Source of the DNA: Escherichia coli
GTDB lineage: Bacteria > Pseudomonadota > Gammaproteobacteria > Enterobacterales > Enterobacteriaceae
Assembly (NCBI RefSeq): GCF_003334355.1
Contig: NZ_QOWP01000019.1
Length of the DNA stretch: 64,000 bases
Direction: 5' to 3' (one strand)
The translations under genes and the position numbers were made by a program. Shown one piece after another: positions 51,134-51,718 of the stretch (positions are counted from its first letter, which is position 1; the number at the start of each line of letters is the position of its first letter). The notes below the pieces were generated by a model. It was not told the DNA's origin, did no database searches, and worked only from the letters and a program-made list of their open reading frames with translations.

Positions 51134-51220
51134 TCCAACTCCCTTTGCTCTGATTCAGTAAAAGCGAATGGAGGGAGATTACACGAGATAAAGAACGCGA
51201 GCGACAGTAAATTAGGTGCG

Positions 51221-51308
51221 AAAAAAAACCTGCGCATCCGCGCAGGTTGGTGCAAGAGACAGGGTACGAAGAGCGTACCGAATAATCTCACCAATCAATA
51301 CCTCTGGG
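51221..51308 (-). ncRNA. omrA: OmrA small RNA (RygA)
   Basis: Minus-strand sequence cccagaggtattgattggtgag...cctgcgcggatgcgcagg plus U8 matches OmrA from recall. Confidence 0.92.
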
Positions 51309-51422
51309 ATCTTGATTGTGGTCTGCACGACGACTCTTCGCCAGCGAGAAAACGCAAAGGAATGAAGGGAAATGCAACGAGGTGTGTAAATTGTCGGTTA
51401 CTGTTACAGATTGATGACCGGC

Positions 51423-51505
51423 AAAAAAAAACCTGCGCATCTGCGCAGGCTGGTGTAATTCATGTGCTCAACCCGAAGTTGACTTCACCTATCAATACCT
51501 CTGGG
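51423..51505 (-). ncRNA. omrB: OmrB small RNA (RygB)
   Basis: Minus-strand sequence cccagaggtattgataggtgaagtc...cctgcgcagatgcgcagg plus U9; shares 5' and 3' ends with OmrA. Confidence 0.92.
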
Positions 51506-51718
51506 ATCACCACTTTAGCAACCTGAAGCCAAACGCCACCAGCGGTCAATCGCAACAGCGTTTCGCAAAGTGTAACCAAAGGTTTGCAATCTCTTTTTTT
51601 GTCTTACTTATTTGCGTTTGGCTCACATTCCCACGATGAAAACACGCCACCCCTTGAACCAACGGGCGTTTTCCGTAACACTGAAAGAATGTAAGCGTTT
51701 ACCCACTAAGGTATTTTC

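Follow-up and report, generated by a model that had tools for sequence, protein, structure and literature searches.

OmrA and OmrB have been under study since 2001-2006, and comparable systems are found in other groups of small RNAs. MicF is an OmpR-activated and Hfq-dependent sRNA of the porin regulon, whose target site is the translation start of an outer-membrane-protein mRNA and whose 3' end is formed by a U-tailed terminator, and its activator, phosphorylated OmpR (OmpR-P), acts at GTTACA-type boxes. Duplicated sRNA genes with a shared seed, separate promoters and overlapping targets are known as PrrF1/PrrF2 in Pseudomonas and Qrr in Vibrio. For OmrA and OmrB themselves, experiments in K-12 showed that both RNAs bind Hfq, that Hfq and RNase E are both needed for ompT and cirA to be repressed, that the conserved Omr 5' end is required for all targets tested, and that compensatory mutations prove pairing with ompT, cirA and the ompR 5' UTR, the last of which results in feedback on their own activator (PMC2588501). 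OmpR-P was found to activate the omrA and omrB promoters directly in vitro on fragments starting at -114, and no activation by OmpR-P was obtained in vitro with PomrA truncated to -60 (PMC5175337). The C at -12 of omrA confers sigma-S dependence and the T at -12 of omrB sigma-70 dependence (PMC12692685), while mutation of T-75/A-68 in the omrB promoter reduced activation by plasmid-borne OmpR from 81-fold to 3.3-fold and abolished activation by plasmid-borne RstA (PMC13425233).

The DNA analyzed here, hereafter the window, is a stretch of 64,000 nucleotides (64 kb) from an Escherichia coli contig. Its positions 51134-51718 form a 585-bp spacer, which is the exact gap from the start codon of aas (48974-51133, minus strand, ORF of 719 aa) to the start codon of galR (51719-52750, plus strand, ORF of 343 aa), both so annotated in a 100%-identical record and in MG1655. 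A sequence-only reading of this DNA had assigned the tandem sRNA genes OmrA and OmrB to the interval between aas and galR and had named a search with the Rfam OmrA-B model as the way to check it. The whole window was searched against Rfam 15 at gathering threshold, and the OmrA-B family (RF00079, gathering score 40 bits) was matched twice in the spacer on the minus strand. Of the two copies, the one nearer aas is omrA (51221-51308, 88 nt), with 96.6 bits and an E value of 6.4e-18 over model positions 1-87 of 87, and the galR-proximal copy is omrB (51423/51424-51505, 82-83 nt), with 86.1 bits and an E value of 2.3e-15 for 51424-51505, again over model positions 1-87 of 87. Both matches are thus full-length, not truncated, and each scores more than twice the gathering score. 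The aas gene follows omrA downstream on the minus strand, with 87 bp from the omrA 3' end to the aas ATG, and galR is divergent from omrB.

The comparison with MG1655 showed that omrA (b4444, 88 nt) is located 88-175 nt upstream of the aas ATG in that genome, and the window omrA has the same offset and an identical sequence; omrB (b4445, 82 nt) is nearer galR, and the window copy corresponds to it at the same offset. Over the entire aas-galR spacer there is one difference between the window and MG1655, an extra T in the T-run of the omrB terminator (9 T in comparison to 8), and the 3' end of the window omrB is therefore at 51424 or 51423. The spacer pair is the known OmrA/OmrB locus of K-12 and not a variant of it. 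The best match to the spacer query, strain OW1E2, is 100% identical and has lplT, aas, galR, lysA and lysR, but no RNA gene, annotated at the locus. The PGAP RefSeq annotation of NZ_CP067245.1, a record with 100% identity to the window, gives no ncRNA between aas and galR, whereas both omrA and omrB are present in the curated record of MG1655.

The extra base could be taken to mean that only one copy is functional in this strain, with the additional T of the omrB terminator, or differences in the strain background, silencing or altering the other copy. We consider this very improbable, since both promoters and both RNAs are otherwise base-for-base those of K-12 and a run of 9 T is likewise present in E. 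albertii and Citrobacter, as seen in the spacer alignment. Furthermore, a longer U-tail is generally expected to favor termination and Hfq binding, as in other Hfq-binding modules, so that the additional T should if anything be an aid to both.

The two genes had also been described as minus-strand units about 200 bp apart with near-identical 5' ends, and this agrees with the measurements: the start-to-start spacing is 197 bp, with 115 bp between the genes, and the two 5' seeds (nt 1-21; 51288-51308 in OmrA, where it is the target-pairing region, and 51485-51505 in OmrB, both on the minus strand) are the same at 20 of 21 nt. The 15-mer CCCAGAGGTATTGAT occurs twice on the minus strand, at 51294-51308 and 51491-51505, with the RNAs starting at 51308 and 51505, and no further copy with up to 2 mismatches was found in the 64-kb window, where 0.16 would be expected by chance. 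A repeat finder recovered the same organization as two direct-repeat families, the first corresponding to the 5' ends (24 nt, 96% identical, spacing 197) and the second to the terminators (38 nt, 89% identical, spacing 203). In the alignment of OmrA with OmrB there is full identity over the first 15 nt and a match at 32 of the last 35, while the middles diverge, as the earlier reading had it. The parts of omrA are the 5' seed, a central stem-loop, and a terminator hairpin followed by U8; the seed and terminator of omrB match those of OmrA and its middle differs. The conserved 5' end of RF00079, CCCAGAGGUAUUGAU(N)GGUGA, is exact in both copies, and both also carry the 3' module of the family, in which CCUGCGC-loop-GCGCAGG and a U-run are preceded by the closing helix GGUG...CACC.

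The terminator scan identified intrinsic terminators at the 3' ends of both genes on the minus strand, each with a 9-pair GC-rich hairpin, followed by T8 in omrA (51221-51248) and by T9 in omrB (51423-51451). The hairpins had been called identical, which holds for the stems, CCUGCGC/GCGCAGG in both RNAs, but not for the loops, which differ by one base (GGAU in comparison to AGAU), so that near-identical is the better term; the base before the stem also differs (A in comparison to G). The minimum free energy (MFE) of the fold was -29.5 kcal/mol for omrA and -26.6 kcal/mol for omrB, with z values of -2.68 and -2.91, respectively, in comparison to shuffled sequences. The single-sequence folds have a central stem-loop and the terminator in each RNA and an unpaired 5' end in OmrA. 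The Hfq module is visible in the sequence of both RNAs as the terminator with a U-tail of at least 8.

To what extent the locus is conserved was examined at several levels. A 1051-bp query spanning the spacer was matched, always with at least 95% identity, in 5424 of 5426 complete E. coli genomes. A scan of 100,044 species genomes with the 15-mer gave at least 120 loci; among the matches listed, most were chance occurrences in unrelated phyla, about as many as expected for 15 bases in 298 Gb, and full-length similarity by nhmmer was seen in all Enterobacterales loci and only there, so that the chance loci outside the Enterobacterales, for which nhmmer gave no full-length similarity among the matches listed, act as a negative control. 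Synteny was determined by tblastn with the Aas and GalR proteins of the window together with nhmmer, and the order aas - omr - galR was found in Escherichia albertii, Citrobacter, Enterobacter, Kluyvera, Kosakonia, Pluralibacter, Mangrovibacter, Edwardsiella and others, the same order being present in more than 15 other loci, with either a single copy or a tandem pair at each. When 54 Omr sequences were aligned, nt 16-21 showed almost no variation and GGUG none; columns 1-15 are the search pattern and hence invariant by construction, with the exception of one nhmmer-found copy with G8A. Across the 54 sequences, compensatory changes are seen at three pairs of the terminator helix and its pairs are essentially never broken, with 99.8-99.9% of the cells paired in comparison to a clearly lower 24-51% for slid controls. 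The GGUG/CACC helix is invariant in these sequences and its covariation therefore says nothing either way, and since the MAFFT alignment of the variable central stem-loop is unreliable, claims of covariation are limited to the terminator helix.

The alignment of 12 Enterobacteriaceae spacers revealed discrete conserved blocks upstream of each gene. The omrA promoter (51309-51409, minus strand) has the -10 element CACAAT at 51315-51320 (-12 to -7), with C at -12 and -13, and its conserved blocks are CTGTAACAGTAAC at -101 to -89, ACCTCGTTGCATTT at -75 to -62 and TTTGCGTTTTC at -50 to -40, for which the consensus across the 12 spacers is CTGTAACAG from -101, ACCTxGTTGCAxTT at -75 to -62 and TTGCGTTTT at -49 to -41. 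The omrB promoter (51506-51586, minus strand) has the -10 element TAAAGT at 51512-51517 (-12 to -7), with T at -12 and TG at -15/-14, which we read as a putative extended -10. Upstream of it are an OmpR/RstA-type box, CAAACCTTTGGTTACACTTT at -81 to -62 (51567-51586), with T at -75 and A at -68, and a block GCTGTTGCGATTG conserved in the 12 spacers at -54 to -42; the upstream block has the consensus AAxCTTTGGTTACACTTTGC at about -81 to -58 in the same alignment. The promoter bases thus match the published determinants, i.e., the -12C of omrA and the -12T and T-75/A-68 of omrB. Both genes have poor -35 hexamers, and a sigma-70 consensus scan of the spacer reported no minus-strand promoter and one plus-strand match, which is inside galR. 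The minus-strand result is explained by the dependence of both promoters on an activator and their poor -35 elements, and for that reason it was not accepted as evidence against the promoters, which are not evident from sequence alone.

The earlier suggestion of OmpR boxes upstream of each gene gave a clear result in a simple scan for omrB only. A position weight matrix (PWM) for OmpR was built from six sites, C1-C3 of ompC, which adjoin micF, and F1-F3 of ompF; each of these sites was verified as exact and in tandem upstream of ompC and ompF in MG1655. The best match in the sense of the sRNAs is CAAACCTTTGGTTACACTTT of omrB, with 7.5 bits and within the top 0.035% of window positions. Its position is that of the conserved block and of the mutated T-75/A-68, and because of this agreement with mutational data the omrB box is credible. 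Upstream of omrA only weak matches were obtained, with at most 1.7 bits and the best of them on the opposite strand; GTTAC motifs are found there within the conserved -101 to -89 block. In the spacer as a whole, two matches reached at least 7.5 bits in comparison to about 0.4 expected, a marginal enrichment, and the top match in the spacer (10.0 bits, 51611-51630, plus strand) was given no weight, being poorly conserved.

The segment TTGCG(A/T)TT...CGCTGG at about -50 to -33 is common to both promoters, and therefore the duplication included the promoter. It is a tentative suggestion, one that we hold with somewhat more doubt than confidence, that the conserved blocks which differ between the promoters (CTGTAACAGTAAC and ACCTCGTTGCATTT in omrA, GCTGTTGCGATTG in omrB) could be sites for paralog-specific regulators and that the shared segment could be a recombination point yielding single-copy chimeras. 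The question of the blocks and of recombination has already been posed for the family in the literature (PMC13425233), and paralog-specific regulation concerns the omr family as a whole rather than this window.

The survey of other genomes reproduced the published pattern, in which single-copy species usually have an omrB-type promoter and an OmrB-like or OmrA-like transcript (PMC13425233). A single omr gene with an omrB-type promoter and boxes at -75 and -54 was found in Lelliottia, Enterobacter spp., Superficieibacter, Shimwellia and Pseudocitrobacter. In Siccibacter colletis (L083, 3958-4445) the single omr gene has an omrA-type promoter with A-type blocks and the -10 CCACAAT, and neither omrB nor an omrB promoter was detectable at that locus. 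In Pseudescherichia vulneris (L102, 340-757) omrB-type upstream boxes are joined to an omrA-type -10 and transcript, an arrangement that points to recombination inside the promoter segment common to both genes. The two Omr copies of Pantoea and Erwinia are separated by about 2 kb in comparison to about 200 bp here (Pantoea stewartii L033, 130-4878; also L062 and L105); in L033, a paralog of an FtsI-like penicillin-binding protein (579 aa, 687 bits in comparison to a cutoff of 737) is located between the copies, and the interval from galR to the upstream Omr copy contains a BisC-family molybdopterin S/N-oxide reductase. In E. coli 300709 (L126, NZ_CP025903.1; 2734-3947) an IS3-family element is located in the aas-galR spacer, and the match to the window picks up again at query base 472 (window position 51371, about -63 of omrA); judged from its position, this insertion would separate the omrA core promoter from the upstream OmpR-responsive region.

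Could the two repeats be duplicated cis-acting leader elements of aas, such as attenuators or terminators, or functionless relics of a duplication, rather than independent RNA genes? Both are upstream of aas on its own strand, with the omrA 3' end close to the aas ATG, and the blank scan for minus-strand sigma-70 consensus promoters would fit as well. However, both copies match the covariance model of an sRNA over its full length, each has its own conserved upstream blocks and a -10 at the right distance, and separate trans-acting transcripts have been published for K-12 (PMC2588501, PMC5175337). A leader role is also argued against by the species that have a single copy or copies 2 kb apart, and aas probably has a promoter of its own downstream of the omrA terminator in the block CTCGTGTAATCT. 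The aas-leader reading, as well as the reading of the spacer as coding, was rejected, and we give to each of them an even smaller chance than to the loss of one copy. A coding origin of the conservation, with one or more small proteins encoded in the spacer, could be proposed from mechanical ORFs of 30-54 aa on both strands (e.g., 51288-51440, minus strand, and 51362-51526, plus strand, both with ATG), but none of these is in the curated MG1655 annotation, cross-genus conservation is concentrated in the 5' and 3' ends of the RNAs and in discrete promoter blocks, the stretches between vary freely with indels that are not multiples of three, and compensatory changes maintain an RNA helix. The statement that no ORF accounts for the spacer has thus stood: the ORFs inside it are all mechanical and none is larger than 54 aa, a 78-aa ORF (51058-51294) overlaps the aas start, and the curated MG1655 record has no protein gene between aas and galR.

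Two further elements of the spacer were observed next to the flanking genes. The block CTCGTGTAATCT is conserved at 51175-51190 (minus strand), downstream of the omrA terminator and ahead of AAGGGAG, the Shine-Dalgarno sequence of aas; this block is probably the -10 region of the aas promoter, and aas transcription would then begin just downstream of the omrA terminator. On the galR side, 15-30 nt upstream of the galR ATG, there is a near-palindrome with a central CG, GGGTAAACGCTTACAT, at 51689-51704 (given in minus-strand letters), which together with the neighboring AGTGTTACGGAAAA...TTCAAG is nearly invariant across the 12 Enterobacteriaceae spacers. A near-palindrome with a central CG is the form typical of operators of the LacI/GalR family, and presumably this is the potential gal operator in galR known from older literature.

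The two genes are, in our view, almost certainly independent units that represent the known Hfq-dependent OmrA/OmrB pair, with the mechanism as in K-12. Membership in the family, identity with K-12, anatomy, synteny, the promoter bases and the complementarity of seed and targets are established here; expression, the dependence on OmpR, RpoS, Hfq and RNase E, and target regulation have been published for the same sequence in K-12 (PMC2588501, PMC5175337, PMC12692685), and the statement of the sequence-only reading that the RNAs are OmpR-dependent regulators of outer-membrane-protein mRNAs is likewise borne out by published experiments on that sequence (PMC2588501, PMC5175337). Given this identity, the present strain would be expected to express and use the Omr RNAs as K-12 does.

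Pairing of the seed with its targets was calculated with the K-12 sequences. Nucleotides 1-9 of the seed pair with ompT at +12 to +20 (ACUUCUGGG) and with ompR at -19 to -11 (ACCUUUGGG, which overlaps the Shine-Dalgarno sequence), in both cases as reported in PMC2588501. The ompT and ompR duplexes were calculated at -20 to -22 kcal/mol, which seeds after shuffling equaled in 1.3-3.3% of the trials, which is a modest margin. For cirA, the global optimum found by RNAduplex was no better than that of shuffled seeds (fraction about 0.3). The published pairing with cirA is short, which makes this approach too blunt for it; the published short pairing, UACCUC...GG, is present.

In the mechanism that we propose, omrA (51221-51308) and omrB (51423/4-51505) form two independent minus-strand transcription units for paralogous Hfq-dependent sRNAs, each with its own activator-dependent promoter with a weak -35, which would be switched on by phosphorylated OmpR. 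The omrA promoter would in addition be sigma-S-dependent through its -12C, and the omrB promoter would use sigma-70 and could also be activated by RstA from a multicopy plasmid. Each transcript would stop at its intrinsic terminator, of which the hairpin and the U-tail would together serve as a typical module for Hfq binding. The 5' end that the two RNAs share (CCCAGAGGUAUUGAU...), which is single-stranded, would then pair with short complementary stretches at or near the translation starts of the targets, namely cirA, ompT, fecA, fepA, csgD and flhDC as well as the ompR-envZ mRNA of their own activator, and this pairing would block translation and lead to RNase E-dependent decay, and also provide negative feedback on EnvZ-OmpR.

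Several other RNA genes were observed elsewhere in the window. A full-length GcvB sRNA is at 18034-18239 (plus strand, 199 bits), and a short Rfam match to ES036/CssrF is at 21255-21297 (minus strand, 46.5 bits in comparison to a gathering score of 37.6), which by the K-12 offset is between the mltA stop and the tcdA start. ARAGORN and Rfam agree on a single initiator tRNA-Met gene at 22725-22801 (plus strand), while in MG1655 the corresponding place between mltA and amiC is taken by a tandem array of three, metZ-metW-metV; the initiator tRNA array thus seems to have been contracted in this strain.

The locus is already known and fully explained, and is of little importance as a discovery. Its value is in the recovery, from sequence alone, of a real functional gene pair that is absent from a PGAP RefSeq record, which makes it a good positive control for a sequence-only scan and a reminder that PGAP-annotated records omit omrA/omrB. 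Among the described systems, the closest is OmrA (rygA, b4444) and OmrB (rygB, b4445) of MG1655, which have the same lengths, the same order aas - omrA - omrB - galR, and the same promoters, terminators and strand; the window locus differs solely by the additional T in the T-run of omrB. In general terms MicF is similar to OmrA/OmrB in its activation by OmpR-P, pairing with a translation start and U-tailed terminator, but its sequence and Rfam family are unrelated, it is single-copy, its target is ompF, and it is not known to feed back on ompR. PrrF and Qrr are unlike OmrA/OmrB in that they belong to different families and have different regulators (Fur and LuxO) and targets. The single-copy and chimeric omr loci described in PMC13425233 have the same seed, terminator and aas-galR location as the window, but the chimeric loci join an omrB-type promoter to an OmrA-like transcript, whereas the window carries the full two-gene arrangement.
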